Below, piece by piece: positions 24,065 to 61,433 of a DNA stretch of 64,000 bases (the stretch's first letter is position 1; every line of letters begins with the position of its first letter). The stretch is taken from assembly GCF_024502345.1 (NCBI RefSeq), contig NZ_JALDNN010000001.1; one strand, given 5' to 3'. This DNA comes from Escherichia coli. Lineage in GTDB: Bacteria > Pseudomonadota > Gammaproteobacteria > Enterobacterales > Enterobacteriaceae. A program made the position numbers and the translations under genes. The notes under the pieces were generated by a model. That model was not told the DNA's origin. It searched no databases and saw nothing but the letters and a program-made list of their open reading frames with translations.

Positions 24065-24090
24065 TGCCTCATCTGTTAACTATACTGACG

Positions 24091-24121
24091 ATTAAAGACC
24101 CTAATCTAACTAGAGGGTCAA
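24091..24121 (-). promoter_or_regulatory. MerR-type promoter/operator for the Zn/Cd/Pb ATPase
   Basis: The minus strand reads TTGACC-19 nt-TTTAAT. The dyad ACCCT-N11-AGGGT lies in the overlong spacer. Confidence 0.75.
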
Positions 24122-24139
24122 GCGCATAAGGGGGGAGGC

Positions 24140-24592
24140 ATGAAAATTGGTGAATTGGCCCGTAAGGCGGATTGTCCGGTGGAAACTATTCGGTACTATG
24201 AGAAAGAAGGATTACTTCAGGCTCCATTAAGAGATATTGAAAATAACTATCGCCGTTACAACAATACTCATCTGGAAAAGTTATTATTTATCCGACGCTG
24301 CCGCTCTCTTGATATGACCCATGAGGAAATACGTGCATTGCTACTGGCAATGAATAATCACGGTAAAGACTGTGGCCCCATTGATGCAATAATCAGTGCC
24401 CATCTCACTCATGTTCAGCATCGTATTAAAGAATTAATAGCCCTGGAAATACAACTCAAAGAACTTAATAACTATTGCAGCTCAGACCGGAGCGTGGACG
24501 AATGCGGGATAGTACAGAAATTGACTGCTGATGAAGAGAATGGTGATCTTCCTTTAACCGTACCAACTGACCACTTGGGGGGTGTGCATTAG
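24140..24592 (+). CDS. MerR-family metal sensor (CadR/ZntR/PbrR-like)
   Basis: MKIGELARKADCPVETIRYYEKEGLL. Divergent from the ATPase, and the RBS GGGGGGAGG is present. Confidence 0.85.
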   Translation: MKIGELARKADCPVETIRYYEKEGLLQAPLRDIENNYRRYNNTHLEKLLFIRRCRSLDMTHEEIRALLLAMNNHGKDCGPIDAIISAHLTHVQHRIKELIALEIQLKELNNYCSSDRSVDECGIVQKLTADEENGDLPLTVPTDHLGGVH

Positions 24593-24681
24593 TGGTGTGC
24601 GCTTATAAGTTGATTAGACTGATGGCGTAACACAAGCCCATACAGCTTTGTGCTACGCCATCATGCCCTTAAAATAAGGGG

Positions 24682-25146
24682 TCAGGCTTTTTCCATTTCG
24701 TTACCACGAGAACGACGTTGCACTGCCCCTTCTCTCTTACCGGGATGGCTTTTAGCATCAGCGGTCATTAATGTCTGGAGTATTGGGCATTCAACTCGCT
24801 CATCCCCAGCACAGCTTTTGATCAGAGCTCTGAGTGTATCTGCCATTCGTCGCATATTTTCCATACGTCGCTCTAAATCATCCATATGCTCTTGTGCCAG
24901 ACGTTTAACATCGGCGCTCTGGCGAGATTTGTCATTCCATAACTTGAGCAAATCGGCTATCTCTTCAAGAGAAAAACCAAGATCGCGCGCACTGCGGATA
25001 AAAATCAGACGATGGACATCATTGGGTGCATAATCACGGTAGCCCGCTTCGGTACGGCCAGTAGCAGGAATCAGACCAATTTGCTCGTAATAGCGAATCA
25101 TCTTTGCGGAGATTCCTGATTCGTTCGATGCTTTACCAATGTTCAT
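24682..25146 (-). CDS. cueR: MerR-family Cu(I) sensor (CueR-like)
   Basis: MNIGKASNESGISAKMIRYYEQIGLIP plus a C-terminal C...C pair (CAGDERVECP). ORF-track ORF 24682-25284 trimmed to the ATG at 25146. Confidence 0.8.
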   Translation of the reverse strand: MNIGKASNESGISAKMIRYYEQIGLIPATGRTEAGYRDYAPNDVHRLIFIRSARDLGFSLEEIADLLKLWNDKSRQSADVKRLAQEHMDDLERRMENMRRMADTLRALIKSCAGDERVECPILQTLMTADAKSHPGKREGAVQRRSRGNEMEKA

Positions 25147-25159
25147 AGCTCCCCTTTTC

Positions 25160-33999: not shown

Positions 34000-35523
34000 T
34001 TAAATGCTGGCGAACGCCATTGCCACTTCTGTAAAGCGCGATGTATACGTGTTTCTGGTCTCCGTCCTCAGATAGGGATTACCTTCGGGTAGCCGCCAGC
34101 GGAACAGCTTCTTGCCTTGCCCCACCAACCGGTACAGTATTTCGCCGCTGAGCTTGCCGTGATTGGTTTTACCAAATAAAACCCACGTTTTGCTCTGACC
34201 CGGTTTCGGTGATTTACACCACCACCTCATCAGGGAAGCGATACCTGTACGGTATTTGCGGGCCAGCCAGTGAGCCAGCTTCCAGAACACGACACGGTCG
34301 ATATAACTGAAGACTTTGGCCTTAAAATCAACGAACTGATAGAACATAGCCCAGCCTTTCAGTTTTCGGTTGAGTTGTTCAGCCATATCGACTTTGCTTT
34401 CACTGTAGTTGCCTGATAACAGTGCTGTCAGCGATGCGGCGAAGTTTCTGGCTTTCTCCTGCGGGATCGTTGAGACCACTCGCATCTCGCCATAACGACT
34501 GCGTTTGCGAATGATCCTGTGCCCCAGAAAGATAAAGCCGTCATTAACATGGGTGATTTTAGTCTTATCCATGTTCAGCCTGAGTTTCAGACTGCCTTCG
34601 AGCACACCCCGACACTCCTCCCTGATGGCTTCCGCCTGTGCTTTGGTGCCTTTGACGATGAGGACAAAATCATCGGCATAGCGGCAGTACGCCACCGCGG
34701 GTTTCCACTGCCAGTTTTCTCTGACCGCCGTACTTCGGCCCCGTTGGATACTGTTATTCCAGTACCACCGATCTTTTCTGGCTTTCCCGCTCAGGTAGCG
34801 CTCATGCAGGTATTGATCGAACTCATTCAGCATGATGTTCGATAATAGCGGCGATATAACACCGCCCTGTGGCACACCTTCACTGGCCGCCCGAAAGAGA
34901 CCGACATCGATATGTCCCGCCTTGATGGTTTTCCACAGCAGAGTCATGAAACGTGCGTCACTGATCCTGCGGCGTACAGCCTTCATCAGCAGTCGATGAT
35001 GTACGGTGTCGAAGTAACTGGACAGGTCGCCTTCAATCACCCAGCGTCCCCGGGTTTCACCACAGTCTGTGAGCTGTAATTTCACCGTGCGGATCGCGTG
35101 GTGGACACTGCGCTCAGGCCGGAAGCCATATGAGAGCGTATGAAAATCACTCTCCCATATCGGCTCCATCGCCATCAGCATGGCCCGCTGAACAATACGA
35201 TCCCGCAACGCGGGGATACCCAGTGGTCGCAGTTTGCCGTTGCTTTTAGGGATGTAAACCCGTCTGGCGGGCAAGGGCTGGTAGTGGCCTGAGAGTAATT
35301 CATCCCTGAGGATTTGCAGCTCAACAGCCAGTCTGGCCTGTAGCATTGTTTTGTTCACGCCATCAACGCCGGGGGTATGGGCCCCCTTTGATGAAAGCGT
35401 GATCCGCGCCGCTTCAGCCAGCCATTCTGGTTGTGTTATCAGACGCAGCAGCCGTTGAATCCGTAGGGACGGATCGGTGGCTGCCCATGTGGCAAGCTTG
35501 CGTTGCATTTCGCTGATTATCAA
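34000..35523 (-). CDS. group II intron reverse transcriptase/maturase (IEP)
   Basis: RT motifs are present, including YADDFVLIV, plus a maturase (X) domain. No obvious HNH endonuclease Cys/His cluster is seen at the C-terminus. Confidence 0.9.
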   Translation of the reverse strand: MIISEMQRKLATWAATDPSLRIQRLLRLITQPEWLAEAARITLSSKGAHTPGVDGVNKTMLQARLAVELQILRDELLSGHYQPLPARRVYIPKSNGKLRPLGIPALRDRIVQRAMLMAMEPIWESDFHTLSYGFRPERSVHHAIRTVKLQLTDCGETRGRWVIEGDLSSYFDTVHHRLLMKAVRRRISDARFMTLLWKTIKAGHIDVGLFRAASEGVPQGGVISPLLSNIMLNEFDQYLHERYLSGKARKDRWYWNNSIQRGRSTAVRENWQWKPAVAYCRYADDFVLIVKGTKAQAEAIREECRGVLEGSLKLRLNMDKTKITHVNDGFIFLGHRIIRKRSRYGEMRVVSTIPQEKARNFAASLTALLSGNYSESKVDMAEQLNRKLKGWAMFYQFVDFKAKVFSYIDRVVFWKLAHWLARKYRTGIASLMRWWCKSPKPGQSKTWVLFGKTNHGKLSGEILYRLVGQGKKLFRWRLPEGNPYLRTETRNTYTSRFTEVAMAFASI

Positions 35524-43336: not shown

Positions 43337-43762
43337 CTAATGCCGGGTGACCCGAAGGCTGCGAAAAAACAGTCTTCCCGTTAGACGATGGCGGGTACGC
43401 TTGACATAAGCGGCGTCAACGAGTTCATCGGGTGGCAAATCACGGGTGATATTACAAATCGTCGCCAGTGCTGTATCGGAGAGTTTAAAACTCCGTGACA
43501 AGGCGTAGTAATCCCCGGTTTTTTGGTTACTGATGTTATCGAATAACGCTCTGAAGAAATCCGTCTGTGAAGGTCTGCGGGCGTTGATAATTGCCTCTGT
43601 CGCTTCATCCCTGAATGTTACCTCCACCTCTTCCATCCCCAGTGAGCGAATGATCCCGGCAATGTCAGGCCAGTAGCGAAGATCGAAACTGTTAAGTCGC
43701 TGCAATTCTGGCTTACAGAAGCAGCTGAAGATTGCGATGCCCTTGTATTGACCTGGACCCAA
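43337..43762 (-). CDS. hypothetical protein (start uncertain)
   Basis: ORF-track ORF only. Confidence 0.35.
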   Translation of the reverse strand: MGPGQYKGIAIFSCFCKPELQRLNSFDLRYWPDIAGIIRSLGMEEVEVTFRDEATEAIINARRPSQTDFFRALFDNISNQKTGDYYALSRSFKLSDTALATICNITRDLPPDELVDAAYVKRTRHRLTGRLFFRSLRVTRH

Positions 43763-45311
43763 AATAGGTTGTGGTTACCCTGAAAAGCAAATATTACCCC
43801 AGAGGGATGTATATACCCGGGGCAAGAGCCCCTGTACCAGTCCCTCATTGCTGTCATGATATTATTACCCCGTTCAATAAGCCCGATAAATAATCGTTAT
43901 CGGGACTACTGCTAAAACGCCCTGTAACGCATCAGGAGCGCCATATTCATACTAACCACAGATTTCCACTATCGTGTTATTCAATGCGCTTATGCAGGCT
44001 CACAGGAAGCTATGGCGGTATAAGACACTACAGCGCTCAATTACTTATTAAATAGCTTGCGGTGATTACCAGGATAATCACCCTATTCCACGTCACCTCA
44101 ATCGGGTTATTCTGTTTACGATACAATCATGACTATTATCACCAACACGGATAATGCCCCGTTTACAGTCGTTACCAATGGCCTTGTTTACACATATCAA
44201 AAAACTTTCAGGGATAACGGGTCACCGTAGTATCTGTAACTGACAGGTATTGTAAGCGTCAATATCAGGCAGACAGAGCAATACCGACAGGCTTACTACA
44301 GGTTAGTTCACTGACTGAGCATTTAACGCTCATCACTAATACGCAGACCAGTAATAAACCATTGATACTCACCTGCTGATTTTCAGGCATGACCATTCAC
44401 CCAAAACGTTACTGTTAACCAGTAACCACCCTGTCGTTATGATTATTAGATTACTGATGTTAATCATCTTCACTTTTATCCTGACGAGGACTAGTCAATG
44501 GTAATATCGACTCAATTCAATTCTGTTTTCTTAATGATAGATTTTTAATGAGTGCTAAACATTCAGGTTGTGACTACATTGAATGGTGTATTTCTTACCT
44601 GATGGCAATGATTGCTCAATGGATACCATCCAATAGTACTATCCCCTTAGTGAATACCTTCAGATAATAATACCTCCCAGGCATAACCCACTTACTGATA
44701 ACACATCATCGATTACTGTTACAAATGATAAGACCCCTTCTTTAATATATTAATACCAATCCAACACGCCAGGCATAACAATAGCTATGAAGATAACCAC
44801 GCCAGACAGCACTTACCTACAACAAACGCCTGCATCAGTTACTCTGGAATTATCTTTTTTCAATAACATGAAAATAGACACCACGTCATATCAAATAACC
44901 TCAATCAAATTAACCCCGTATCATCACTGCCCGCAGAAGCCCTCAATCCTGATTATGAGCAACAAAATGGAAATACCTCATGGCAGCCCGACCTGATACC
45001 AGAAATGCCCCCTGAAGCGAACCAGGCACCATGATGGGGATGAAAACGAAAGCATGCAGGAGAACAAGATAACCTATTGAGACGATACTCATCCAGTAAA
45101 CAGAGAAGCATCTGAGAGATAAACAAAGAAAATGACAACTTTAAAACCATGGTAAAACCTTGTCAAAACCAGTATAAATCAACAATAAAACCTCACGATG
45201 ACTACCAGATGTGTTTTTAAGTGACGATAAAACCATCATCGTGATACTGTGTAGCTACAACAATCACCACCATAACCACTACTATGTAGTTTACGATTAC
45301 AGGTATCCACA

Positions 45312-46280
45312 ATGGTTGTACATTACGACAATGGCAGACAACATCTTATAAAAACCCGTGACCTGAGAGTCTGTGCTTTTTATGCCGGGTGGCTGGGTGT
45401 TAATAAAATAATTAACACCCGTGACATTCCTCACCAGGATGCAGAAAGTTGTCGACAGGCACTCAACAAACTGATTAATCAGTTCATACCGAATGCAGAA
45501 CAGCGGGCAAGACTTTTTTCTGATATGGAAACAGCCCGTGATGAAAACATCCTTCCGCTGGAAAGTTTTGACTGGCTAGAACAGGATGAACGGGCAACAT
45601 TCTGGTTATGGGCGTATATTTGCAAGGCCGGAGACTACGAACTTGGTATTGACAAACCAGCAAATGCAGAGTTCGGAAAGAACTGGTATCAGCGAATGAA
45701 TCTGAGTGTATCTCCGACAAGCCACCAGGAAAGAATTAATATTATCATCTCTTTTTTCGACAACATTATTATTCCGACCCCACCGGTAAATCATCTCAAG
45801 CGCCAGGTCATGGACAGGCTGAAAGACCAGTGGAAAAATATTTACAGCAAACCAGCTCCGCTGAAATGGTTACCTAATGAAGAAGACGCGGTACTGTGGG
45901 CATGGAACAGCCTCAAATCGCTTCAGGAAGAAAGAAATGCGCCCACTATCGGGCTCTCATTAAATATTTCAACGCCAGGAATGAGTACCTGGTTTACCCC
46001 CCTGAGTCATTCTGAACGCAATTTAGCCCTGCGCACGGCGATCGACTTATGGGACGATGCACCGGATACAAAGCGTTTATTCCTTCTGAACCTGAATAAA
46101 GCCTGGAACCAGCAAAAATTACGTCAGTCCCGTACCGATAAAAAAGCACTCAATACGTACCTGAAGAACGAAACAAAAACTCGACTGGACTTTATGGCAG
46201 AACGTAGCGGAGTTCGCATCAGTGATATGCTGGAAATGCTGATTAATGACCATTACCGAAAAACCTGTGGTGGTGAGTGA
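45312..46280 (+). CDS. hypothetical protein (322 aa) with a possible C-terminal ribbon-helix-helix-like tail
   Basis: ORF-track ORF. The C-terminus TRLDFMAERSGVRISDMLEMLI resembles an RHH segment. Confidence 0.5.
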   Translation: MVVHYDNGRQHLIKTRDLRVCAFYAGWLGVNKIINTRDIPHQDAESCRQALNKLINQFIPNAEQRARLFSDMETARDENILPLESFDWLEQDERATFWLWAYICKAGDYELGIDKPANAEFGKNWYQRMNLSVSPTSHQERINIIISFFDNIIIPTPPVNHLKRQVMDRLKDQWKNIYSKPAPLKWLPNEEDAVLWAWNSLKSLQEERNAPTIGLSLNISTPGMSTWFTPLSHSERNLALRTAIDLWDDAPDTKRLFLLNLNKAWNQQKLRQSRTDKKALNTYLKNETKTRLDFMAERSGVRISDMLEMLINDHYRKTCGGE

Positions 46281-47187: not shown

Positions 47188-47916
47188 ATGCAACGACCCG
47201 ATGAAGAGGCCCGCTACGACCGGCTGGCCGTCAGATTGTCGGTCATTATCAGCCGGTTAATGGCCGGAGAAACGCTGACCCTTCAGACACTGTCCGGTGA
47301 GTTTGGTGTATCGATACGCACCCTGCGTCGTGACTTACATCAACGGCTGGTCCACCTCGACATTATCGGGGAGAACGGCACGTATCGGCTCAGTGAGAGC
47401 GCCACGCGTGATCACTCTCCGGGGGCCGTTTCCTTTGCCCGCAGTACCGGTATCGCACGCATTATCCCGTCGCAGAACCGGCAACTGATGCACCTGCTGA
47501 TGAATGAAACGGGCACCTCACCCTGCTTTATCTGGCACGACTTACCGCCAGCATGGACACAGGCTGACAGTTTTCATCGTCTGGCCGAAGCCATTTGTCA
47601 TCACCGGGTGGTCAGTCTGCTGGTCGGCGGTGTCCGTCACGATGAGCAGGAGCCTTACCGCCTGATTTACCGGCATCAGCACTGGTATCTGGTCGTCTGT
47701 TGCCGGGGGAGCCTTCGGGTGTTCCGGCTGGAAGACATTATCTCGGCCTCACTCTCAGAGCAAACCTTCCGTCGCCGGAGCGAAATCAGTTCGCTCATTA
47801 CTGAAGAGGGATTTATCAGCGCACTGCCCCACTTTCGCTTTATCAGTGATGTCATTCACACCTTCAGGGAACAACACCCTGAACATCCATCCAGACCCAA
47901 AGGAGTCAAATCGTGA
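47188..47916 (+). CDS. yfjR: HTH plus WYL-domain regulator, YfjR-like
   Basis: YDRLAVRLSVIISRLMAGETLTLQTLSGEFGVSIRTLRRDL. Resembles CP4-57 YfjR by recall. Confidence 0.7.
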   Translation: MQRPDEEARYDRLAVRLSVIISRLMAGETLTLQTLSGEFGVSIRTLRRDLHQRLVHLDIIGENGTYRLSESATRDHSPGAVSFARSTGIARIIPSQNRQLMHLLMNETGTSPCFIWHDLPPAWTQADSFHRLAEAICHHRVVSLLVGGVRHDEQEPYRLIYRHQHWYLVVCCRGSLRVFRLEDIISASLSEQTFRRRSEISSLITEEGFISALPHFRFISDVIHTFREQHPEHPSRPKGVKS

Positions 47917-50277: not shown

Positions 50278-50673
50278 ATGAGACTAGCCAGCCGCTTTGG
50301 ACGGACAAACCAGATCCGTCGCGATCGTCCGTTAACCCGCGAAGAACTGATGCAGGTCGTTCCCAGCGTATTCAGTGCAGATCGCCACGGTTCCAGGAGC
50401 GAAAAATACGCTTACATACCCACCATTACTCTGCTCGAAAATCTTCAACGCGAAGGCTTTGAACCCTTCTTCGCCTGCCAGTCACGCGTACGCGACCCTG
50501 ACCGCCGGGAGCACACCAAACATCTGCTGCGCCATCTTTGTAGACCGGAGAATGATGTTTGGATGAAAGCGAGTTTTGGTACCCTCATCATTGAGGGTAC
50601 CAACAGCAAAATACTCGGCGAATGCTATTGTCTAAGCACAGCGCCAAGCCTTAGCGGCACGAATAGTTGTTAA
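50278..50673 (+). pseudogene. DUF932 (YfjQ/YafZ-like) gene truncated after about 85 codons by the incoming AT-richer block
   Basis: MRLASRFGRTNQIRRDRPLTREELM...FFACQSRVRDPDRREHTKHLLR matches the family N-terminus by recall. After about 50532 the sequence is unrelated and the frame runs to a chance stop. Confidence 0.7.
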
Positions 50674-50675
50674 CC

Positions 50676-53414
50676 TTACTCAGCTTTAGCAAACTGCTGG
50701 GTGAAGTAAGCCAATGAATTAGCTTCTTTTACGGCATCATGCGGAATGAGTAAGTATTTCCAAGGTTTGCCACCGTGCTGTGCAAGGTATTCACTGGCAT
50801 GACTACACCATTTCACACCACTGCGGGCTTTTTCGGTGACTTCCTCATTCCAACTGCCGTCTTGGTTTTGATGTTGAGTACTTTTAGTTTCAATCATCAA
50901 TACATAGTCGGCGGTTTCAGCAACGAAATCCGGCACGTATTCAGGATGCTCGCTACCGCGTTTGTAGTACATCTTGAATTGGCCTTTGGCAGGCTTAAAC
51001 CACTTCTCGCAGTCGCGTTCTAAAATCACCGCAAAACGGCGCTCAGTGTCTGAATCAAACTTTTGCAATGGGTATAGACAACGGCTAAAGCCGCCAAAGA
51101 GCATTTGTTTGATGCGACTGACATCGCGTACTGTATCACGGTAGCTTTGCACCGGCTGGTCTTGCGCTATGGTGTAAGCGCAGTCACGTAAGGTACTAAA
51201 GCCACTGCGTACATCGACGACGTACTCGGTTGCTTCTTCAAAGAAGTGGTTGTTCAGTTGCGCATGAATTAACTTCGCAATCGCATCACTCTGGTTTTGC
51301 AGAATGTTCTCAACCACATCGTCGTCGTTTTCAGCGGCCAGTGTATTGACAGCTTGAGTGGCTAGGTCAAACAAAAGTTCAGCTTGCTCGTCGTAAGGAA
51401 TATCGTCGTAATCGAACAGCTTCTTCAAAATATAGTTTTGTTTCACCGGCTCGTAGTTGCCCGAATCGCCTTCGCCACGAATGGTTTGGTGATTGTCTTG
51501 CAGGCTTTGTTGAATCAGAGTTCGGTCGATAGGTTTTAAACCTTTAATGGCAGCAATGTCCAAATCGAACGGGTGATAGCCGGTACGTACTTCACCTGAT
51601 GGTGAAACAATAATACGCGGAATATCTATGGTGTTATCCACCGTGAGCTGGGTGACTTGCTCAACAATCGCCGCAATATCCACCGATTCTTCAGTAAATA
51701 GCTCCCGTTGCTCTTGGGTTAACTGAGCTTTTACTTGTTCGGTGATCTGTGCTTTTACCTCAGTCGTTAACAATGCTTTGCTGGTCGGCGCATCGGTAGG
51801 GCGTGTTTGATATTGCTTGATCACGTCCAATGCAGCGCGGGCAACGGTTTGTTGGTTAGGCGTGGTATAAGTGGCTTTAGGTTCTTGTACCTCACGGTTA
51901 CCGTCTGCACCGGTTGCGGTTACACCTGAACCAGTCAGTTGCTGCTCTAGGTTCGATTTAACCTGCACACTTTGTTTGGTTACATCGTCTTCTGGGCGAT
52001 CTAATACGCGTGTTTTCAGGCGCAGTGGGTTATTCGGGTCGTTAGCCTCATCAACAATTTCTTGGAATTTGTCGTGCGCAACAATGCTCAGCGTATCGAC
52101 GGCTTCAACACCTGTACGTTTGCCATAAGGTAAACGCAAACCACGGCCAATTGACTGTTCAATTAGGGTTCTGGCGTTGGCTGCACGTAGTGGCACAATG
52201 GTGTACAGGTTAGTAACGTCCCAACCTTCTTTCAGCATGTTAACGTGAATGACGATCTCGGTTGGCTCATCGACATGCTCAACATTGAGCAGTGCTTGAA
52301 TAGTTTCTTCTTCTTTTTTACTGCTATCCACTTGAATGACTTTGCCACGGTAGCGGCCGTCAAACACTGTTTCAAGTTTGGTTAAAAGCTCTGCTGCATG
52401 CGTGGTATCACGGGCAATCACCAACATAAAAGGCTTAACTAACTTAGCATCGTTTTCATGTGCATAAGTGATTAAATCCACCTTGGTTTGCTCATGTAAA
52501 CGAATACCGTCCATTAACTTAATGGTTTCTAGTTCGTCTTTATCATATTGGCTGGCATCAAAGTTACGCTGAGTAACAACGGCAGGCTCTTTAACAAAAC
52601 CATCATCCATGGCACAGGCCAATGGGTAATCAATCACCACATTTTTAAAGTGCACAGGGCCACGACTTGATTCGGTAAATGGTGTGGCCGTTAGCTCTAA
52701 TGCGAATAGTGGATTAAGCTCATTGAGCGCACGCATACCGGCATCGGCACGATAGCGATGCGATTCGTCCATCAGCAGCACTAAGTCAGGTAAGTTCGAT
52801 AGATACTCAAAGTAGCTTTCGCCTAGGGTTTCCGCTAAACGCTTAATACGCGGGGCTTTGCCTCCACGTACTTCGGTGTTAATTTTCGCGATGTTAAACA
52901 CATTGATCCGAACCGAACCAAATAGATCGCCCATGACTTGTGCGCCGCGGCTCTCATAGTTATCACCGGTGATCACTTCTGGCGGTGCTAGCACAAAATC
53001 GGTAATGCCTTTAAACACGTACTTCGGTGAGGCGGGCGAGAAATCGCTGATCAGCTTTTCATAAATAGTCAGGTTAGGTGCCAACACAAAATAATTGCGA
53101 ATGCCATGTACCTGATACAAATAGGTAATAAACGCCCCCATCAAACGGGTTTTACCTACACCTGTTGCCAAGGCAAAACACAGTGAAGGAAAGTCACGTT
53201 CAAAATCGCTGAGCTTAGGAAACTGCGCTTTTAAGGTTTCTAATAGCTCCGGCACATCGCGTTTTGGGTTCAGTAGTTTGTGCTCAGAAGCACTAATCGC
53301 CACTGCCAACGCACGCAGCGAATCTTGCTGCGGCTGGCGTAAGCTTAAACGGCCAATAATATTATTAATGGCACGTAATTGGTCGGGTTTTAAGCTTGAT
53401 AAATCCATGGTCAT
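50676..53414 (-). CDS. res: Type III restriction enzyme Res subunit (SF2 helicase plus C-terminal PD-ExK nuclease)
   Basis: ATGVGKT, MDESHRY, TATP and C-terminal PDF...IETK. Confidence 0.85.
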   Translation of the reverse strand: MTMDLSSLKPDQLRAINNIIGRLSLRQPQQDSLRALAVAISASEHKLLNPKRDVPELLETLKAQFPKLSDFERDFPSLCFALATGVGKTRLMGAFITYLYQVHGIRNYFVLAPNLTIYEKLISDFSPASPKYVFKGITDFVLAPPEVITGDNYESRGAQVMGDLFGSVRINVFNIAKINTEVRGGKAPRIKRLAETLGESYFEYLSNLPDLVLLMDESHRYRADAGMRALNELNPLFALELTATPFTESSRGPVHFKNVVIDYPLACAMDDGFVKEPAVVTQRNFDASQYDKDELETIKLMDGIRLHEQTKVDLITYAHENDAKLVKPFMLVIARDTTHAAELLTKLETVFDGRYRGKVIQVDSSKKEEETIQALLNVEHVDEPTEIVIHVNMLKEGWDVTNLYTIVPLRAANARTLIEQSIGRGLRLPYGKRTGVEAVDTLSIVAHDKFQEIVDEANDPNNPLRLKTRVLDRPEDDVTKQSVQVKSNLEQQLTGSGVTATGADGNREVQEPKATYTTPNQQTVARAALDVIKQYQTRPTDAPTSKALLTTEVKAQITEQVKAQLTQEQRELFTEESVDIAAIVEQVTQLTVDNTIDIPRIIVSPSGEVRTGYHPFDLDIAAIKGLKPIDRTLIQQSLQDNHQTIRGEGDSGNYEPVKQNYILKKLFDYDDIPYDEQAELLFDLATQAVNTLAAENDDDVVENILQNQSDAIAKLIHAQLNNHFFEEATEYVVDVRSGFSTLRDCAYTIAQDQPVQSYRDTVRDVSRIKQMLFGGFSRCLYPLQKFDSDTERRFAVILERDCEKWFKPAKGQFKMYYKRGSEHPEYVPDFVAETADYVLMIETKSTQHQNQDGSWNEEVTEKARSGVKWCSHASEYLAQHGGKPWKYLLIPHDAVKEANSLAYFTQQFAKAE

Positions 53415-53435
53415 TATAATTATCCTTATTAACCG

Positions 53436-55142
53436 TTAATCTTGCGCTGCATCGTCATCGGCAGACGCATCGTCAGTTAGGTTTGCCACGTTTAACGAAT
53501 AATCGTCCTGACCAAATTGGCACTTGTCTAAAATGGCTTTTGGCAGTTTTTTCAAGGTTAAATTGGTAAAACGACCTGGCTCGCAGCGAAATGCACCACA
53601 CATAACCAGTAAAGTTCGGTCACTGCCAACTTCTTCTGACAGCGCTTCTAATTTATCTACCGATAAGCTTTGTGTGGTGACATAAATATGATCCGTCTCG
53701 GTTGAATAACCGTGATCCCACCAATTCACTTCCGATGGCGCATAGGTAAAACCTTCCAGCTTACAAACGGCTTCGGCGAGCATTTCTGGGTTGTACTCTT
53801 TATTGATCACTTCCAAGCCAAACTTATCTTTCACAATTAAGGTCGGGGCAAGTTTGTAATAGCGGAAGCCACCGCCACCTTGCCAGTTTACAGACTTAGA
53901 AATACCACCTTGATCTTCGCCATCAATCACTTTTTGCAAGCGCGGGATAATATGGGTATGACAATGATCACCTAGCTCGACCGAGATCCAACGTCTTTTC
54001 ATCTTGTGAGCTACAGCAGCAGTAGTTCCCGAACCACCGAATGAATCAAAGACTAAATCGCCTTCTCGCGTACACATTTCGAAAATCCGCTTCAAAAGCG
54101 CTTCGGGTTTTTTTCCATTTTTGAAACTAACGCCGCCTTCATTTGCTATTCCATTCCAACTAATGTCAGTCCAAACATCAGTTATTAGTTCAGCAGGTTG
54201 CATCTCACCGTCAATTTCCAAAAGCCTATTGGAGTAAAAGACCATTTGCCTACCATTTGCGATATAAAAGCCTTCGACATCCTCATTTGGATGTACATAA
54301 ACCTTATCCCTATCTTTCTTTGACTTCTCGATAGTTTCTTTTCTCTTTATTTTAGCACCACCACCAATTGCAACGGATTGAAATACACGTTCTGCATTAT
54401 CAATTGCGAATTGTGCTAATTCATCATCAAATGTATCAGGCAGTTTTTTCTTGGCTTCTTTTGTATCTTTATAGCCATTGGCCTTTGCAAACGCATCGGC
54501 AATACCGCACCACGTCCAACTTTTATAATGGTCATCTGGGTTTAATAGATATTTGTTATATCCCGTATCATATCCTTTAGGTATATAGATTTTGTTAAGC
54601 GGTTTCTGGGTGCGATCTTTTGCGTATACAAGCAAAAAGTTTACTGTGGAGAAAACTGTGGCCCCTGTTGCCTTAAAGCCTGAAGGGTCATTTGTGGTCA
54701 TCGATATGGTATTTAACTGATTTGCACGACCAAAAATCTCGTCCATCAAAACTTTTAAATAAGCCATTTCGCAGTCATCTAAGTGAACGAATATTACTCC
54801 ATCATCACTTAGTAGATTACGAATTATTTCTAACCTATCCCTCATTAAGCCCAGCCAAATGGAATGCTCCAGACCATCATCATAGTGCTCAAAAGCACTT
54901 CCGGTATTGAATGGTGGGTCTATGTAAACACACTTCACTTTGCCTGCATATTCTTGCTCTAGCGCCTTCAATGCCAATAAGTTATCGCCAAAAATCAGTT
55001 TATTATCAAAAATATCGTTTTCGGTCACTTTTTGGCTGGCGTGATAAGACTTGCTCGGGTCTTCTAACAAAATGCGCGGCTCTAACTTTTTGCGCTCGTT
55101 TTTGCCTATCCAGGTCAGTTCTAATTTGGTTTTGCTCATCAT
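53436..55142 (-). CDS. mod: Type III-style beta-class N6-adenine DNA methyltransferase (Mod)
   Basis: YIDPPFNTG (motif IV) precedes FDSFGGSGTTAAVA (motif I). Sits immediately upstream of res. Confidence 0.85.
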   Translation of the reverse strand: MMSKTKLELTWIGKNERKKLEPRILLEDPSKSYHASQKVTENDIFDNKLIFGDNLLALKALEQEYAGKVKCVYIDPPFNTGSAFEHYDDGLEHSIWLGLMRDRLEIIRNLLSDDGVIFVHLDDCEMAYLKVLMDEIFGRANQLNTISMTTNDPSGFKATGATVFSTVNFLLVYAKDRTQKPLNKIYIPKGYDTGYNKYLLNPDDHYKSWTWCGIADAFAKANGYKDTKEAKKKLPDTFDDELAQFAIDNAERVFQSVAIGGGAKIKRKETIEKSKKDRDKVYVHPNEDVEGFYIANGRQMVFYSNRLLEIDGEMQPAELITDVWTDISWNGIANEGGVSFKNGKKPEALLKRIFEMCTREGDLVFDSFGGSGTTAAVAHKMKRRWISVELGDHCHTHIIPRLQKVIDGEDQGGISKSVNWQGGGGFRYYKLAPTLIVKDKFGLEVINKEYNPEMLAEAVCKLEGFTYAPSEVNWWDHGYSTETDHIYVTTQSLSVDKLEALSEEVGSDRTLLVMCGAFRCEPGRFTNLTLKKLPKAILDKCQFGQDDYSLNVANLTDDASADDDAAQD

Positions 55143-55196
55143 TTCTGTGCTCTTATCTTGTGTTCGTTACTTAGCGTTATTATTCTACAGCAATCG

Positions 55197-57062
55197 CTAC
55201 GCAGGTTGTGCTTGGCGATTACTCGCTTGGGTGTTTTGCCCTTGTCGGCGTTGCGCTTGCTCGGCTAAGTAACTGAATAAATTCTGGTTGTGTGGGTCGT
55301 TCGCTTGAAGGCGTTCTTGTTTTGCTACAACTGCCGGGCTTTCTGCCAAGTTTAAATGGCTAATCCACACCGTTTGCATTAAACGTGCGGTATCGCCCAA
55401 GCGTTTGAAGTATGCGTGCGGCGCACTGCCTAATACTAATGCCGTAAAACTATCAAAAAATTGCTGACGAAGTTCATCAAAAGCGTGGCTGATTAATCTT
55501 TTAAATGCCGCTTGCTCGGTAATCTCAGGAGCCGTAATAGCGCCTTCAAACTGCGCCATTAATAGCGTGGTTATGCAGTAAGTAAAATGTCGATATACCA
55601 GTTTTTCTGGGCTTGGACTACTGCGCTCTGCGTTTGTACATAAGACTTGAATAGCCAGATAGCAGTTCACCGCGTTAATGGCGACGGCCCCCTGTAAATC
55701 TGTACTAAAAACGGCTTGGTACTCGGCACTTTCTTGGTTAGTGAATTTGCTTGGCTCTACTTTTAGCTGATAAGGCACGCGTACATCACCGTGCATACAG
55801 GCCAATGCTTTGGCCAAGGTGTCGATAGTAATGCTGCGAATACCCGCTGCTGCGCTTTGTTGTGGGCGGTAGAGATATTCAACACCAAACATTTTCATCT
55901 CTTGGCGCAAGCGTTCTTGGGTATCATCCAGCGCGGCAAAGTTGGCTAAATCGACCGGGTTTTGCAGGTTACGCGCTTTGGTTACTTGTTTGTGAAATGC
56001 ATCGTTACCCGTGTTGATAATGGTTACCATCACTTGAGCTTGGCTGATGTCTGCATTTGGGTTTTCACGCATAAACTGTGCAGCACTAGCAATGGTTTGT
56101 GCACCGTTAACGACGGACAGGCCATCGACTGCAACATGCTTGCTACCTGTGTGGCCTCTAATATTCCCTTTTGGTTTTACTGCATTGCCAACCAGAGTAA
56201 TGCCATTGTTAAGATAAATAAAATTTTCCGGCTCATGTAAAAGGGTGTCTTTAATCGCCCTATTTACCCCACGTCTGCCAGCACCAATAAAATAGCGAAT
56301 ATTTTTCTCGTAAAGTTTACGGTCATGAGTAGTGTGCAAGGCAATTAAATCGGTTAGCTTGGCGATACCAAATACGACTTTTCGTGGTTGTTCTTGCACT
56401 CGGAACTTATATACAGCGACACGCTCGTTTACCGTATCAACCGCATGTTCACTGCGAAGAGCCTGCTCAACATCGGTGGCGGTGTATTCTTGATATTCAG
56501 GTGCGATTTGCTCTTCACCTTCATCAATCAGCTCTTGGATCGCTGGTTGTAGGTAGTTTTGTGCTTGTATGGTAATGCCATTACCTGTGTATGCGACAAG
56601 CAGTTGAATTCTTTCGCACTCGTCTAATGCGGCTTCAATATTTGCTTGAAGGTTTTGAACATTTTGATTAAAGCGGTGAAATTGCTTGTTTAAAAGTAAC
56701 TTTACACCCTCAATAAAAGCCTGTGCTTCGCCCAATTGGAATTGCGCATCTTCCTTCATTTTTGACTGTACTAAGTACAGAGTCTGATCAGCTTCGTGAT
56801 AATAAATTGCATCAATACCATGGTCTTCATAGTCGTCCACCACAGCTTTTGCTGCGGTCACTACGTCTAAATCGAATTTTTGCTGTAGTACGAATGCGCT
56901 AAAAGCCCTGGAAATTTGCTTTTTAGGTTTATCTTCTCGCCCACCTTGCCCAAGCAATGGCGGTAAATGCGGCACAAAACGCTGCTGTAGCAGTTCTTTT
57001 AATAGGGTAAGAAATTGTGGTTGTAATGCTGCCAAGTGAGTTGTCCTTATTTTTATTGCCAA
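55197..57062 (-). CDS. AIPR (abortive infection phage resistance) family protein
   Basis: [17 protein letters not shown]...NNGITLV...VVNGAQT core. The N-terminus GIDAIYY...LYLVQSK is nuclease-like. An apparent TTG start overlaps the Abi_2 stop. Confidence 0.75.
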
Positions 57063-57982
57063 ATTGGCCGCGCTTGCCAGTCGGCTGGAAAGCCCATGCG
57101 GTCAATGTCTATTTGGTGATGATTTATCAATTGGATGAGTCGTTGCTTCCAGTGATGTTCACCACTGATCACATCCATGAGGTAGCCCAACATCACCAAG
57201 GTGTTATAAATTTTTCGTAAACGCCGGTCGCTATCGGGCAGGTTTTGCAAGCTTTGAATCAGTGCCGGTTCACCATGGCGTGGCAGTACCGTGGTTTTAA
57301 TAAAATCACGGTTCCATAGCCTAGAATGATGGGCACTTAAATTGCGCACTAGCGACAAATGCTCACAGAATGAGGTAAGAGTTTTTTCATCTAGGCCGTA
57401 GCTTTTGCTTATTACCTGGCGGTCGGCACGCAGCTTGATATTGCTGTACCAACAGGAAAGTTGCCCCATGGTTAACAGCTCAACACAGGCCCAAATAGGG
57501 GGTAGTGGCTCTTGATATTTTTGCGTAAGGTGCTTGATGAACTCTTCACGACTGCACTTTACCTCACCCGTGAGTTTGCCAAGGCTACTGGCGTATTCTA
57601 ATAAATCACCAAAGAGCTCTGGTTTTAAATGAGGGTGCGCGGTTTGGTATTTTTGGCTCAACTGATACGCAATTTGTGTGCGTAATGACACCTCAAAACG
57701 CTCGATGGCATCTAGCACTAACAAACGTAGTTCACGGTCGAAAACATATAGGCTTAGGACTTGGTCAAACTGAGTACCTGTGATAAACGTATGACTGGCA
57801 TGATCTTGCTCATAGGGCAAACAATAAGCCGCAAAACGATAGTAGTTCAGCTGTGCTAAGTAAAACTCAGCTTTCGGGACATCACTGATCACTAGGCCAC
57901 GTTGTTGCAACAAGCGTACTTGATCGCTAAAGCTTGTAGGGGGCTTGGTAAAAGCGACTTTAGGGACTGGTTTGCGGCTCAT
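57053..57982 (-). CDS. Abi_2 (AbiD/AbiF-like) abortive-infection family protein
   Basis: [10 protein letters not shown]...[16 protein letters not shown]...[10 protein letters not shown] is the Abi_2 pattern. The ATG at 57982 follows GGGAGG. Confidence 0.75.
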
Positions 57983-58086
57983 TTGACCTCCCATGCAACA
58001 GAAGATCGAATTTTGCGGGCCCCAGAAACGAGTAACCCCTCACAGGGCGCTGATCTGACGGGTAGCGGGAGGGGTGTTGTTGCAGT

Positions 58087-58114
58087 GATCATAGCCCCAA
58101 ACTGAAAAAAGTCA
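58087..58114 (-). promoter_or_regulatory. candidate sigma70 promoter for the Abi_2-AIPR pair
   Basis: The minus strand reads TTGACT-16 nt-TATGAT in the 157-nt gap after the SNF2 gene. Confidence 0.45.
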
Positions 58115-58139
58115 ATGCTGGCGTTGAAATTGATTGTCA

Positions 58140-61034
58140 TCATTGAACCGTCCACCCAATGGTAAATAGGGTCTCTTGGCTGGTTTTTTTATTCAGTTTG
58201 CCTTCTAAGCTTTCAATCAGCTGTTCGCGCTTTTCGTCCACTTCATCTTGTTTATCAAACAGTTCACGGCGGCTTTTATTGCGCTGACTTTCTAACTGGC
58301 GCTGCTGTTTTTGCAGGGCAAGTTTCTCTTCCAGGGTTGGAGCTATTTTGGCTTCGCGGCGTACTTGCTTGATTTGCTTATCAAGCTCTTTTATAGATTG
58401 TTCAAGCCCTTCTTTTAAATCGTCTGCCCAAGAATCTAACTTGTTTACCTCTTGCTCGAAGAAGCTGAGATTACGATCGTTAACTTGCTTTTCGATGCCT
58501 AGTCTCGACTGCTGTAACGCATGCTGCAGCGCATATTGATAGCCAGGATATAAGGCGGCAAGTTCTTGCTCACTTACTTCACTTTGCACACAGGCACTAA
58601 GCTGCATCAGCTTTTGCACGACTTCACTTGGTAGCGGATGACCATGTTCATCTTGCGCGGCGAACAATAAATGGTCTTCGCTACGCTCCAATGATTCGAC
58701 ACTAAATTTTTGTAGGCTTAGTACACCTGACAAACCCACTAAGGGTTCTAGCATACTGATTTTTGTTTGGTGGTTGCTGTAATCAAAAATTACGCTGGCA
58801 ATGGGTAATTCACGTTGAAGCGCGTTGCTGATCACCCATTCACCCAGCGGGTGGGTGATACGATACACATGGGCATTGGCTAGTTTACCGGTTTCAATAC
58901 TGCCGCTTTGCTGTCCTCGGCGTACAAGTTGGTAGCTACCTGTAGGAGCCTGATTGATACTTTGATTAAGCGTAAAACTATGGTTGCTTGGGTCAATGTC
59001 TGCGATAGCTGCAAGTTCATGCGTACTGAGTTGCCAGAACCAACGGCCTACTTTATCGAGGCGTTGCTGCGCGGCATCTAGCTGAATTTTGAGTAAGTCG
59101 TGAATATCTTCATCGAAATTTTCCAGCAGCAGTTGCTGGGTCTCGCGCATTTTTTGGTTGATGTCGGCTTCTAGCTCTTTTTGCAATTGATCAAAAGCTG
59201 CTTCTATTTCCGCCGGTTGCCGACAAGTCTCGTATATATTTTGGATGCGTTTTTCAAAATCAATACCAGATTCAATGCTGCCTAGCACATCGTCCGATGC
59301 ACCAAACACGCCATCGAACAGATGGAATTTTTCAGTCAGTAACTCTAAAACACGCTGATCGGCTTTGTTGGCTTCGTTGAGGAAGTTGATCACCACAACA
59401 TCAAATTGCTGCCCATAGCGGTGACAACGGCCAATACGTTGCTCTACTCGTTGTGGGTTCCATGGTAAGTCATAGTTAATAAGTAACGAACAGAACTGTA
59501 AGTTAACCCCTTCTGCAGCCGCTTCGGTTGCGATCATAACTTCGGCATGATGGCGGAAGTAATCAATTAGGGCAGTACGGCGGTCAATTTGCGGTGAACC
59601 ACTCACCTTATCACTACCTTGGTTTTCAGCTAACCACTGCTGATAAACTTTGGTTGCTTCTGGATGGTTATTGCTGCCACTAAAGGTGACTAATTTATCA
59701 GCAAAGCCATTCGCCTCGAGGAAACGAGCTAGGTATTCTTGCGTGCGCTTCGATTCGGTAAAAATAATGACTTTACGTGGCGCCCCCATTTCCTCCATTT
59801 TGGCAAACCCTTGATTAAGCGCCGTTAGCAAGGCTTGGGTTTTACTGTCGGTGGTAATGGATTTAGCCTGCTCGATATAATGCTCAAGCTCGGCTATTTC
59901 AGCATTGAGTAACTCAAAGTCAATATCACTCTCAGGGGTATTGCTTTGTGTTTCTTCTACATACTCGCTGTACTCTTCTCCTAAATCATCACTCTCAACA
60001 AGCTCACTGATAATATCGAGGTCCGATTTAGCCTGTACTTTCAAGTCAACCAATCGGCGCTTTATAGTTTCGAGTGTGTTGAGCACTGCGTGCGAACTAG
60101 ATGCTAATAGCTTTCTCAGTATAAGGCCGGTTAAATGACGTTGGCTCTTGGGTAGTGCATAGCTCTCGTCCTTTTCCAATAAGGCACTAATACTTTCGTA
60201 AAGTGCCATCTCAGCATTAGAGGGTGTAAACGGTACGGTGAGTGTTTGACGTTGGGTATAGCGGACGTATTCGAGTACATCTTTGCGCAAGGTACGCTGA
60301 ATAAACCCGGTAAGTCGTTTCTTTAAATGCCCTAGCGCACTTTCGTTATTGACAAAGTGTTGTTTGAAGCTTCGCTCATCGCCGAAGATTTGATCGTCGA
60401 TAATGGTTGAAAGTCCATACAATTCCATGAGCGAGTTTTGTAAGGGTGTTGCAGTAAGTAATAGCTTTTTACTGCCATCTAATGCGCGGCGTAGCGTTTG
60501 ACCCATTTTATTGCTGCTACGATGTGCATTACGTAGCTTGTGCGCTTCGTCGATGACGACAATATCCCATGGCTCTAGCATTAGCTGCGTTTCCATTCTC
60601 GCAGCATAGTGATAGGACATAATAGAAACGCAGTGATTAGCTAGCGGGTTAGTTTGACCATTGTTAACACTAATGCGCCACGTTTTTGCATCAAGCACTT
60701 GCGTTGGTAAATTAAACTTATCGCCCAATTCCTGCGCCCACTGGCGTCGCAATGACGCCGGGCAGATGATCAATATGCGGCGTTTACGCTCTGCCCAATA
60801 CTGTGACAGTACTAAGCCTGCTTCAATAGTTTTCCCTAAGCCCACTTCATCAGCGAGTACAACACCTTTGCTTAACGGGTTGTTGAGCGCAAAAAGTGCC
60901 GCATGAATTTGGTGCGGATTGAGATCAACACTGGCATCAAAAAGAGATTGAGACAATTTATCAACGCCATTTTCAGCGTGGCGAATGGTTAATTCCTGCG
61001 CAAAGTATTTTGCTTGATAATCAGTTATTACCAT
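58140..61034 (-). CDS. SNF2-family helicase (964 aa) with a long coiled-coil-rich C-terminal extension
   Basis: LADEVGLGKT, VVIDEAHKLRN, LLLTATPLQNS, QRIGRCHRYGQ. ORF 58140-61115 trimmed to the ATG at 61034 (MVITDYQAKYF). Confidence 0.85.
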   Translation of the reverse strand: MVITDYQAKYFAQELTIRHAENGVDKLSQSLFDASVDLNPHQIHAALFALNNPLSKGVVLADEVGLGKTIEAGLVLSQYWAERKRRILIICPASLRRQWAQELGDKFNLPTQVLDAKTWRISVNNGQTNPLANHCVSIMSYHYAARMETQLMLEPWDIVVIDEAHKLRNAHRSSNKMGQTLRRALDGSKKLLLTATPLQNSLMELYGLSTIIDDQIFGDERSFKQHFVNNESALGHLKKRLTGFIQRTLRKDVLEYVRYTQRQTLTVPFTPSNAEMALYESISALLEKDESYALPKSQRHLTGLILRKLLASSSHAVLNTLETIKRRLVDLKVQAKSDLDIISELVESDDLGEEYSEYVEETQSNTPESDIDFELLNAEIAELEHYIEQAKSITTDSKTQALLTALNQGFAKMEEMGAPRKVIIFTESKRTQEYLARFLEANGFADKLVTFSGSNNHPEATKVYQQWLAENQGSDKVSGSPQIDRRTALIDYFRHHAEVMIATEAAAEGVNLQFCSLLINYDLPWNPQRVEQRIGRCHRYGQQFDVVVINFLNEANKADQRVLELLTEKFHLFDGVFGASDDVLGSIESGIDFEKRIQNIYETCRQPAEIEAAFDQLQKELEADINQKMRETQQLLLENFDEDIHDLLKIQLDAAQQRLDKVGRWFWQLSTHELAAIADIDPSNHSFTLNQSINQAPTGSYQLVRRGQQSGSIETGKLANAHVYRITHPLGEWVISNALQRELPIASVIFDYSNHQTKISMLEPLVGLSGVLSLQKFSVESLERSEDHLLFAAQDEHGHPLPSEVVQKLMQLSACVQSEVSEQELAALYPGYQYALQHALQQSRLGIEKQVNDRNLSFFEQEVNKLDSWADDLKEGLEQSIKELDKQIKQVRREAKIAPTLEEKLALQKQQRQLESQRNKSRRELFDKQDEVDEKREQLIESLEGKLNKKTSQETLFTIGWTVQ

Positions 61035-61227
61035 CCAACACCCCTTTTCCTTGAGCTGCTTGCGTACTGATCCATTCTTCAAGATCGGATTGTTTAAAGC
61101 GCCAAGCATTGCCAACTTTAAAAGCAGGAATTTTATGTACCGCTGCTAGACGGTAAACAGTTCTCTCATTTACCTTCAAATACTCAGCTACTTCTTTAAT
61201 TGTCAGAACGGTATCAGTCATTTTCAC
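61021..61227 (-). CDS. excisionase-type (HTH_17/MerR-like) DNA-binding protein
   Basis: LTIKEVAEYLKVNERTVYRLAAVHKIPAFKVGNAWRFKQSDLEEWI. Confidence 0.8.
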   Translation of the reverse strand: MKMTDTVLTIKEVAEYLKVNERTVYRLAAVHKIPAFKVGNAWRFKQSDLEEWISTQAAQGKGVLDGNN

Positions 61228-61433
61228 TCGGCCACTTTGAAAAGTGCGTCAATTATCTAATGCGAGTGTCAAAATAGTACAAATAAGTACATGAATCAAT
61301 CTTATTCGGCACTTGCCGGAGCTCCTTGGCTTTAATCCTCATCAATTTTAGGTACAGTTTTCAGGCTCGGGGATAAAGTATAAAGAATGTCGTACTGCCG
61401 CTGCCAGAGCAATATTCCCCCCTGCTGGTTGTA

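Follow-up and report, generated by a model that had tools for sequence, protein, structure and literature searches.

The locus and its genes

Within a stretch of 64,000 nucleotides of Escherichia coli DNA (contig NZ_JALDNN010000001.1 of RefSeq assembly GCF_024502345.1, here called the window), six genes on the minus strand form a block that a first-pass annotation, made from the letters alone, had read as one composite defence operon built around a Type III restriction-modification (R-M) core. From the upstream end they encode a small helix-turn-helix (HTH) protein, an ATPase of the SNF2 family, two proteins of the Abi_2 and AIPR families, and the methyltransferase (Mod) and restriction (Res) proteins of a Type III-like system (Table 1). 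The open reading frames (ORFs) and the Pfam and PADLOC profiles bear out the six genes and their domains, and every motif quoted for SNF2, Mod and Res was located in the translations at a sensible position. Comparison with related loci, described below, leads to a narrower description, in which the conserved core is the SNF2 ATPase together with the Type III-like Mod and Res.

Table 1. Features of the block, listed in the direction of transcription; positions are those of the window
Feature	Position	Strand	Description and basis
5' leader	61228..61356	minus	Likely promoter/operator region, upstream end of the transferred block; homology start and repeats
HTH	61021-61227	minus	68 aa, excisionase-type; ORF list and domain profiles
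SNF2	58140-61034	minus	964 aa, start is the ATG at 61034; conserved third core gene
Intergenic spacer SNF2/Abi_2	57995..58139	minus	Start of cargo slot A; promoter-like site inside
Abi_2 (AbiD-like) abortive-infection gene	57053-57994	minus	Embedded cargo 1; Pfam and PADLOC profiles
AIPR (AbiU-like) gene	55197-57062	minus	Embedded cargo 2; Pfam and PADLOC profiles
Mod	53436-55142	minus	568 aa; Type III, beta-class N6-adenine methyltransferase
Res	50676-53414	minus	912 aa; divergent Type III-like, superfamily 2 (SF2) ATPase with C-terminal PD-(D/E)xK nuclease
3' trailer	50524..50675	minus	Ends at the insertion junction in a truncated DUF932 gene; homology ends

The 14-nt overlap of HTH and SNF2 and the gaps of 54 and 21 nt before Mod and Res are as first described. 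The accompanying claim of tight packing holds at these junctions, with their small overlaps and gaps, but the packing is not uniformly tight, because 145 nt with a promoter-like match lie between SNF2 and Abi_2. This match (TTGACT-16-TATGAT at 58115-58088, agreeing with the sigma-70 consensus at 10 of 12 positions) is the best of 12 promoter-like matches found in a scan of the region. Counts in the promoter and terminator scan were not above the shuffled expectation, and only the site in the SNF2-Abi_2 gap stands out; no consensus promoter in the 5' leader passed the scan. Two TGTACT repeats spaced 10 nt apart can be read directly from the sequence of the leader, and so can a hairpin in the 3' trailer, GGTACCCTCA/TGAGGGTACC. 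The reported 10-nt overlap of Abi_2 and AIPR exists only with a TTG start. In an identical E. coli locus the Prokaryotic Genome Annotation Pipeline (PGAP) instead separates the two genes by 17 nt, calling an Abi protein of 309 aa and an AIPR protein of 612 aa with starts equivalent to 57982 and 57035.

The SNF2 protein matches SNF2-rel_dom (119 bits) and Helicase_C in Pfam and carries the motifs LADEVGLGKT at aa 60, VVIDEAHKLRN at aa 159 and QRIGRCHRYGQ at aa 532; its Walker A, DEAH and motif VI residues are invariant (alignment A1). Its best PADLOC match is the DrmD model, with 693 bits over aa 30-665, compared with 190 bits for the HmaA model. The more stringent NCBIfam models give 697 bits for DrmD_b (NF038318, cut-off 950) and 305 bits for NF038317 (cut-off 610), and with both scores below their cut-offs we rejected an assignment to the DrmD of class 1 DISARM at equivalog level. 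Because DrmD_b aligns only over its model positions 22-656 of 868, the last ~300 residues of SNF2 differ from it. These residues form a C-terminal domain (aa ~661-964) that is conserved throughout the clade and specific to it; used alone as a query, the domain retrieves 984 clusters (50% identity), and the proteins, of ~950 aa, carry it at the C-terminus in every case.

Among solved structures, RapA is the sole one that aligns over the full length of SNF2. An AlphaFold model, which served only for comparison of the domain layout with RapA, has a predicted local distance difference test score (pLDDT) of 67 and a predicted template modelling score (pTM) of 0.36, with a confident C-terminal part. 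In this model the C-terminal domain is beta-rich with a long coiled-coil hairpin inserted, in agreement with the published description of the BrxHII/RapA C-terminal domain. Neither the profiles nor the model contain RapA-like N-terminal Tudor domains, a nuclease domain or any other effector domain. The protein is a RapA/DrmD-like Swi2/Snf2 ATPase.

Mod matches N6_N4_Mtase (PF01555) with 139 bits and the PADLOC model MTase_III over its full length with 944 bits. Its motif order is that of the beta class, DPPFNTG at aa 75 preceding FDSFGGSGTT at aa 365, so that motif IV comes before motif I with a central target-recognition region, as in Type III Mods, and its nearest solved structures are the Type III Mods 6K0W and 4ZCF. 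Compared with four orthologues, the ends of the protein are 80-100% identical and the centre (aa ~120-360, nt ~54063-54785) 10-40%. Judged from these alignments, the hypervariable target-recognition region at the centre appears to carry the usual signature of swapped recognition regions.

Res matches ResIII in Pfam (74 bits) and REase_III in PADLOC (634 bits). It contains ATGVGKT at aa 83, MDESHRY at aa 215, PDF at aa 828 and IETK at aa 841, and motif I, DESH and the residues D829, E842 and K844 are invariant (alignment A2); by motif and profile it is thus predicted to combine an SF2 ATPase with a C-terminal PD-(D/E)xK nuclease, as expected of a Type III Res. The match to the Res of EcoP15I is faint (E = 5.8e-6 over ~70 residues), and we therefore regard the protein as a divergent branch of Type III Res. 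The order of the genes, with mod directly upstream of res on the same strand across the 21-nt gap, is likewise that of Type III systems, and as far as sequence can tell the locus answers to the definition of such a system. The catalytic motifs of SNF2, Mod and Res are all intact and are invariant in relatives.

Linkage of SNF2 with Mod and Res

Two sets of related loci were assembled. The forward set, obtained by scanning one genome per species from SNF2, comprises 80 loci with full-length relatives of 50-97% identity from Gamma-, Beta- and Deltaproteobacteria, Neobacillus, Gemmatimonas, Nitrospirae and Verrucomicrobiota. The reverse set, obtained by scanning metagenomes from the Res family of the window, adds 80 further loci. 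Forward counts were based on the 61 loci with at least 7 kb of downstream sequence.

A Type III-like Mod and Res lie downstream of SNF2 on the same strand in 59 of these 61 loci. The remaining two are L055, where the order is permuted to Mod-Res-SNF2, and L048, where the C-terminal end of a classical Type III Res lies upstream of SNF2 at the contig edge. Viewed from the other side, a complete Mod and Res of the window type occur in 66 loci of both sets, with SNF2 upstream in 50 of them. Ten of the 16 loci without SNF2 offer under 3 kb upstream of Mod; two others (L143 and L153) are uninformative, with recognised cargo families filling all of the upstream sequence, and L146 has only small unmatched ORFs in its ~3.5 kb. 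True losses of SNF2 are confined to L137, L091 and L084, which keep full-length Mod and Res; in one of them a tRNA synthetase gene adjoins Mod and in the other two only remnants of SNF2 are left. An intact SNF2 is thus kept in 50 of ~53 informative loci found through the window Res family.

The same SNF2 clade is associated with three families of Mod and Res, namely the window type (a 568-aa Mod and a 912-aa Res), a pair of ~1050 and ~1120 aa (MTase_III PDLC03646 and REase_III PDLC03654), and a classical EcoP15I-like pair. The second type is much commoner than the window type; in it cargo is optional, and SNF2 abuts Mod in 35 of 46 loci, the gap having a median of 66 nt. When 88 SNF2 proteins were placed in a neighbour-joining tree, the nearest neighbour had the same type of Res in 83 cases, and the window type fell into two large pure clades. 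The linkage of the genes in both directions and the agreement of the SNF2 tree with Res type indicate that SNF2, Mod and Res constitute a linked, co-evolving triad, which is the conserved core of the locus.

These results uphold the view of the first-pass annotation that an ordinary Mod/Res pair does not account for the locus, and the tabulation of neighbourhoods that it proposed finds SNF2 strongly enriched beside Mod and Res. It had also allowed that the idea would fall if existing tools assigned every gene to an independent named system and SNF2 were not so enriched. Named systems do cover most of the genes, yet SNF2 is enriched, and the core of the claim survives in narrower form. Standard tools name four of the six genes (RM type III, AbiD and AbiU).

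Regulator, cargo and borders of the block

The HTH protein matches Pfam HTH_17 (69.9 bits) and PADLOC mad1 (38 bits) and passes the NCBIfam MAD1 equivalog by two bits (81.9, cut-off 80). When ORFs that end at the SNF2 start were searched with a profile, only 16 of the 104 loci had it immediately upstream of SNF2. Among the loci that were inspected, its position is taken elsewhere by a WYL-domain regulator with a 4-nt overlap with the SNF2 start, by an 85-aa XRE-type HTH protein, by a 348-aa HTH protein, or by nothing obvious. Because the gene is rare upstream of SNF2 and replaced elsewhere, we take it for one of several interchangeable regulators, and it was ruled out as a core gene; the protein is probably the transcriptional regulator of the operon. 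RefSeq/PGAP gives the name "mads1" to this gene (window 61021-61227) and to the stretch 22498-22698 of L001, which is misleading, as no other MADS gene is present. Within MADS, mad6-8 are mandatory and deletion of mad1 has little effect. The label does not imply MADS, because MAD1 is dispensable there and common to unrelated operons.

The two genes between SNF2 and Mod are predicted from their profiles to belong to known families, Abi_2 with 175 bits in Pfam (cut-off 25.6) and 238 bits for PADLOC AbiD, and AIPR with 134 bits in Pfam (cut-off 25) and 128 bits for PADLOC AbiU. Their site, which we call slot A (window 55143-58139), is filled in all 50 window-type loci, with lengths between 757 and 5817 nt. 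A second site between Mod and Res, slot B, measures either 24-135 nt or up to 5 kb. Together the two slots of the 50 loci hold 144 ORFs in 61 clusters. The AIPR cluster, present in 17 of the 50 loci and always in slot A, is the commonest occupant of that slot in the window-type lineage; it is found without Abi_2 in L006 and L086, among others. Abi_2 occurs in four of the 50 window-type loci with SNF2 (three times in slot A and once in slot B), and alone in L003. As either can be present without the other, they are separate modules of one gene each, and their distribution suggests that both are independent cargo in a variable slot.

Other loci carry in slot A a 770-aa LmuB-like ABC ATPase (10 loci), OLD-family nucleases, Ppl, IetA/IetS, GmrSD/HEC-06, HEC-01 or a Type IIG-like methyltransferase, and in slot B RhuM/PDC-S05, DUF1016-PDDEXK/PDC-S02, a Zeta-toxin-like kinase or small paired ORFs. 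The nested genes thus vary among homologous loci and include known defence systems, as expected of embedded defence genes; such "guilt by embedding" is already on record for Hma, BREX, DISARM and Type I R-M. The notion of a six-gene composite does not survive these comparisons, with the HTH gene in 16 of 104 loci, Abi_2 and AIPR each occurring alone, and unrelated defence genes in the slot elsewhere.

Whole known systems fill slot A in L107 (3527-6664), L101 (3145-6494) and L090 (3772-6570), the types in these loci being an Eco57I/MmeI-like Type IIG methyltransferase-type protein, IetA/IetS and Ppl. Among the many other cargo clusters, some, such as that at 2397-4025 of L143, have no family match. 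All of the window-type loci (L003-L013 and L083-L162) have something in slot A, which is empty in 35 of 46 commoner relatives. It is possible that cassettes in an always-filled slot are swapped by recombination between the conserved ends of SNF2 and Mod and never precisely deleted.

The G+C content of the block is 0.42-0.47, compared with 0.54-0.55 in the left flank and 0.49-0.53 in the right flank, and lies 7-12 points below that of the left flank. This profile confirms the earlier impression that the block is more AT-rich than its surroundings. Among 5,426 complete E. coli genomes, 24 carry the whole block at an identity of at least 99.5%, and 29 carry the HTH-SNF2 pair. The left border lies at 50524, the end of the homology with other E. 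coli genomes as well as with Methylophaga, and homology to Methylophaga sulfidovorans (L003, 9678-18600), a methylotroph of a different order from E. coli, spans 61356 to 50524. From these limits we conclude that the unit is 50524-61356 and that it has recently moved between distant hosts; the same limits support the earlier claim that the block arrived as a unit.

Between L003 and the window, an arm containing HTH and SNF2 (61356-58181) has 95% nucleotide identity up to a break at 58181, and an arm containing the Mod C-terminus and Res (54064-50524) has ~90%. The cargo and the Mod recognition region between the two arms have been replaced. Such a mosaic middle between near-identical arms points to recent long-range transfer.

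The flanking DUF932 ORF (50278-50673, plus strand) matches its profile only over positions 2-52 of 227. It is truncated, as had been proposed, but the fraction of the gene replaced by the block is about three quarters, not two thirds, since only these profile positions remain. There are no direct or inverted repeats pairing the two ends of the block in the manner of transposon ends, and no tRNA gene within the window that could provide an attachment site. A cargo-free HTH-SNF2-Mod-Res operon is found on Klebsiella IncFII plasmids. On one of these, pR85_2-2 of Klebsiella pneumoniae (NZ_CP091585.1; L165, 8729-18481), it lies in the leading region near ssb, psiB and psiA and adjoins a DUF932 gene; such a gene thus adjoins both the block in the window and the plasmid operon. 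Plasmids encoding the SNF2 C-terminal domain number 44, of which 27 are conjugative; phage genomes contain no relative of it.

In other E. coli strains and on Salmonella IncFIB plasmids, an insertion sequence (IS) element and a different Abi gene lie between the same SNF2 and Mod. The loci of E. coli MB46 (L163, 7031-12041) and E. coli CFSAN064036 (L164, 2572-12041) have the same HTH-SNF2 with IS1 and a split Abi gene in slot A. A second IS1 in MB46 has removed Mod and Res and left HTH-SNF2 alone.

Elsewhere in the window, a GmrSD-like (DUF262) gene followed by a complete Type I hsdM-hsdS-hsdR operon (5394-13433) forms a second defence cluster. A P4-type tyrosine integrase at 14517-15782 suggests an integrated island that takes in all of the sequence to its right. 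On the minus strand, 21563-27655 holds two genes for heavy-metal P-type ATPases (E1-E2 ATPase and HMA domains), which are probably metal-resistance cargo of this island. Further to the right are a 712-aa AAA_13 ATPase (30167-32305), whose domain family is common in defence proteins, a group II intron reverse transcriptase/maturase (34000-35523), a sharp G+C dip to 0.39 (43500-45500) that marks another foreign segment, and, ~3 kb to the left of the locus, an HTH-WYL regulator gene (47188-47916).

Proposed working and relation to known systems

These results lead us to consider it likely that the locus is a modular defence operon, in which a Type III-like core with an added SNF2 ATPase is accompanied by a swappable regulator and independent cargo. 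Mod would mark host sites on one strand, and unmarked incoming DNA would be bound and then cut by Mod-Res, as in Type III enzymes. As an accessory factor on that DNA, the SNF2 motor may render restriction effective, for example by removing bound proteins and other roadblocks or by driving communication between sites, and it may also improve methylation. The HTH protein of the MAD1 family, translationally coupled to SNF2, would control expression of the operon, for instance on entering a new host. Abi_2/AbiD and AIPR/AbiU would provide a second, independently triggered back-up layer, probably with its own promoter, in a recombination-prone slot. The physical cooperation of SNF2, Mod and Res, the action of the motor, the target of the HTH protein and the activity of the locus are all inferred, whereas gene content, intact motifs, linkage, co-evolution and the variability of slots and regulator are shown by the sequences.

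Several published observations bear on the role of the motor. The SNF2 protein ArmA is essential for ARMADA II defence (PMC13463889). Deletion of drmD together with drmMI nearly abolished the protection by class 1 DISARM against one phage, and DrmMI methylated more completely when the whole DISARM system was present (10.1101/2021.12.28.474362). The ATPase of MANTIS is required to load its methyltransferase. With low confidence, we favour a role of SNF2 in restriction over a role in methylation. Protective methylation probably does not strictly need SNF2, because three natural loci keep Mod and Res without it, an argument that we regard as weak.

Some points weigh against the proposed operon. 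Cargo with a promoter-like site separates SNF2 from Mod, so that co-transcription is not assured. L137, L091 and L084 keep Mod and Res without an intact SNF2, and MB46 keeps HTH-SNF2 without Mod and Res; each part can therefore persist alone, at least for a while. Res resembles solved Type III Res only faintly, and the SNF2 model is of moderate quality (pLDDT 67, pTM 0.36). Each set of loci represents the best 80 of ~560-590 confirmed candidates, obtained in scans limited to 600 matches, and is biased to closer relatives.

We are more doubtful about a stronger version of the proposal, in which SNF2 is an obligate third subunit that alters the mechanism of the Type III enzyme. Motor-driven communication or protein clearance might then take the place of passive one-dimensional sliding, or, alternatively, ATP hydrolysis by the motor might license cleavage or methylation. 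If true, this would define a distinct and widespread sub-type of R-M, with about a thousand protein clusters in several phyla and a presence on common conjugative plasmids of Klebsiella and Salmonella, and its two built-in cargo slots could be a new platform for the discovery of defence genes by embedding.

The evidence bears unequally on other explanations. That SNF2 is chiefly a methylation factor, on which self-protection depends because it loads or activates Mod in the way of the AAA+ ATPase MtsA of MANTIS, is in our judgement unlikely. ATPase-dependent methylation is established in MANTIS, and the more complete DrmMI methylation with the full DISARM system agrees with such a role, but the three loci that keep Mod and Res without an intact SNF2 would then be expected to be lethal, a weak objection as these are metagenomic cases only. 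Plain defence-island adjacency, with HTH-SNF2 as a stand-alone unit (like HmaA or the ietH helicase) beside a two-gene Type III system, has a smaller chance of being correct. It would account for the cargo and promoter-like site between SNF2 and Mod, for Mod and Res without SNF2 in three loci and for HTH-SNF2 without Mod and Res in MB46, and nuclease-fused SNF2 helicases can defend alone (PMC11232893). The SNF2 protein considered here, however, has no nuclease or other effector domain, and remnants of SNF2 in two of the three loci that lack it speak for decay rather than independence. Moreover, the association is found in 61 of 61 forward loci (counting the permuted L055 and the Res fragment of L048) and 50 of ~53 reverse loci, with strand and order fixed across three Mod/Res families and an SNF2 tree that tracks Res type.

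It is very improbable that all six genes make up one integrated, mutually dependent machine. They are co-oriented and packed, the block moved as a unit, and the same set of six recurs in the 24 genomes of E. coli and on one contig of a gut metagenome. Against this, HTH is present in 16 of 104 related loci, Abi_2 and AIPR appear in four and 17 of 50 loci, each without the other, with 61 unrelated cargo families in their stead, and the commonest relatives have no cargo at all. We give least credence, and very little indeed, to a degenerate or variant member of class 1 DISARM, ARMADA, MADS or Hma. The best PADLOC and NCBIfam matches of SNF2 are DrmD models, PGAP names the HTH gene "mads1", and the pairing of SNF2 with an adenine methyltransferase is common to all these systems. 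Nevertheless DrmA, DrmB and DrmC are all missing from the locus, as are mad2-8 and proteins of the YprA/DUF1998, DUF1156 and DUF499 kinds; SNF2 falls below both DrmD cut-offs and has a different C-terminus; and the methyltransferase, a PF01555 Type III Mod, is not PglX-like. In 61 of 61 loci SNF2 is partnered by a Type III-like Mod/Res, L048 being counted by its Res fragment.

We found no published name or description for the combination of SNF2 with a Type III core or for its slots, in a search that lay outside most subscription journals and REBASE. The modular operon that we propose is native to E. coli and exists in a cargo-free, four-gene version on common Klebsiella IncFII plasmids, which makes it readily testable, although all of its components are of familiar kinds. 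Its slots, with dozens of known and unknown families, can be mined for defence genes as those of Hma were. The annotations "mads1" for the HTH protein and "DrmD-like" for the motor are misleading for this locus.

Like MADS, the locus is a methylation-based defence operon headed by a MAD1-type HTH, but mad2-8 (a kinase along with a specificity subunit, plus the mandatory mad6-8) are not in it; MADS was rejected because only mad1 was matched, with no mad2-8 among the matches listed for the six proteins. MANTIS (formerly Gao_RL) likewise combines an ATPase and a helicase-nuclease effector with an adenine methyltransferase that acts on asymmetric sites, and, as with Type III systems, inverted pairs of sites stimulate its restriction. 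It differs in using the AAA+ ATPase MtsA and the co-regulator MtsB in place of SNF2 and in the families of its methyltransferase and effector, and it was rejected with no AAA+ or BrxC-like protein in the locus. Hma shares the layout of an SNF2 helicase, a slot, a methyltransferase, a second slot and a third enzyme, and its cargo families overlap with ours (Ppl, GmrSD/HEC-06, and AAA_21 with DUF4276/HEC-01). Its core is unrelated, with a DUF3883 nuclease in HmaA, DUF1156 in HmaB and the DUF499 ATPase HmaC; it was rejected on the lack of DUF1156, DUF499 and DUF3883/NOV_C domains in the locus and on the 190 bits of the HmaA model.

The earlier judgement that the locus fits none of BREX, DISARM or Dnd/Ssp holds. 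On the absence of DISARM parts it was right about DrmA, DrmB and DrmC and overlooked that the DrmD model (693 bits) is the best match of SNF2. No match to DUF1998 or to phospholipase D (PLD) was obtained with the six proteins, the only match to DrmA being a weak secondary one of SNF2, and there is no DISARM core triplet in the annotated related loci L020, L022 and L055. Class 1 DISARM (DrmD-DrmMI-DrmABC) and ARMADA (ArmA-ArmB-ArmC-ArmD) resemble the locus in having a RapA/DrmD-like SNF2 beside an adenine methyltransferase at the head of the operon, followed by a helicase-nuclease effector. That effector is a YprA/DUF1998 helicase with a PLD or Vsr nuclease in those systems and a Type III Res here, the methyltransferase is PglX-like there and a PF01555 Mod here, and the C-terminal domains of the SNF2 proteins differ. 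ARMADA was rejected with neither a YprA-like ArmC carrying DUF1998 nor a PglX-like ArmB in the locus.

The closest comparison is with Type III R-M of the EcoP15I/EcoP1I type, which has mod directly upstream of res, a beta-class Mod with a central variable recognition region and a Res with SF2 helicase motifs and a C-terminal PD-(D/E)xK motif. Classical systems need only Mod and Res, whereas the locus adds a conserved SNF2 gene and embedded cargo and has a very distant Res. Type III enzymes are regarded as standard two-subunit, ATP-triggered, sliding enzymes; for cleavage they require a pair of unmethylated sites in inverted orientation, and they methylate their sites on one strand only. A large, conserved branch whose members almost always carry a RapA-like SNF2 motor suggests that this textbook picture is incomplete. 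The family links Type III systems to DISARM, ARMADA and BREX type 3, which use the same kind of motor.

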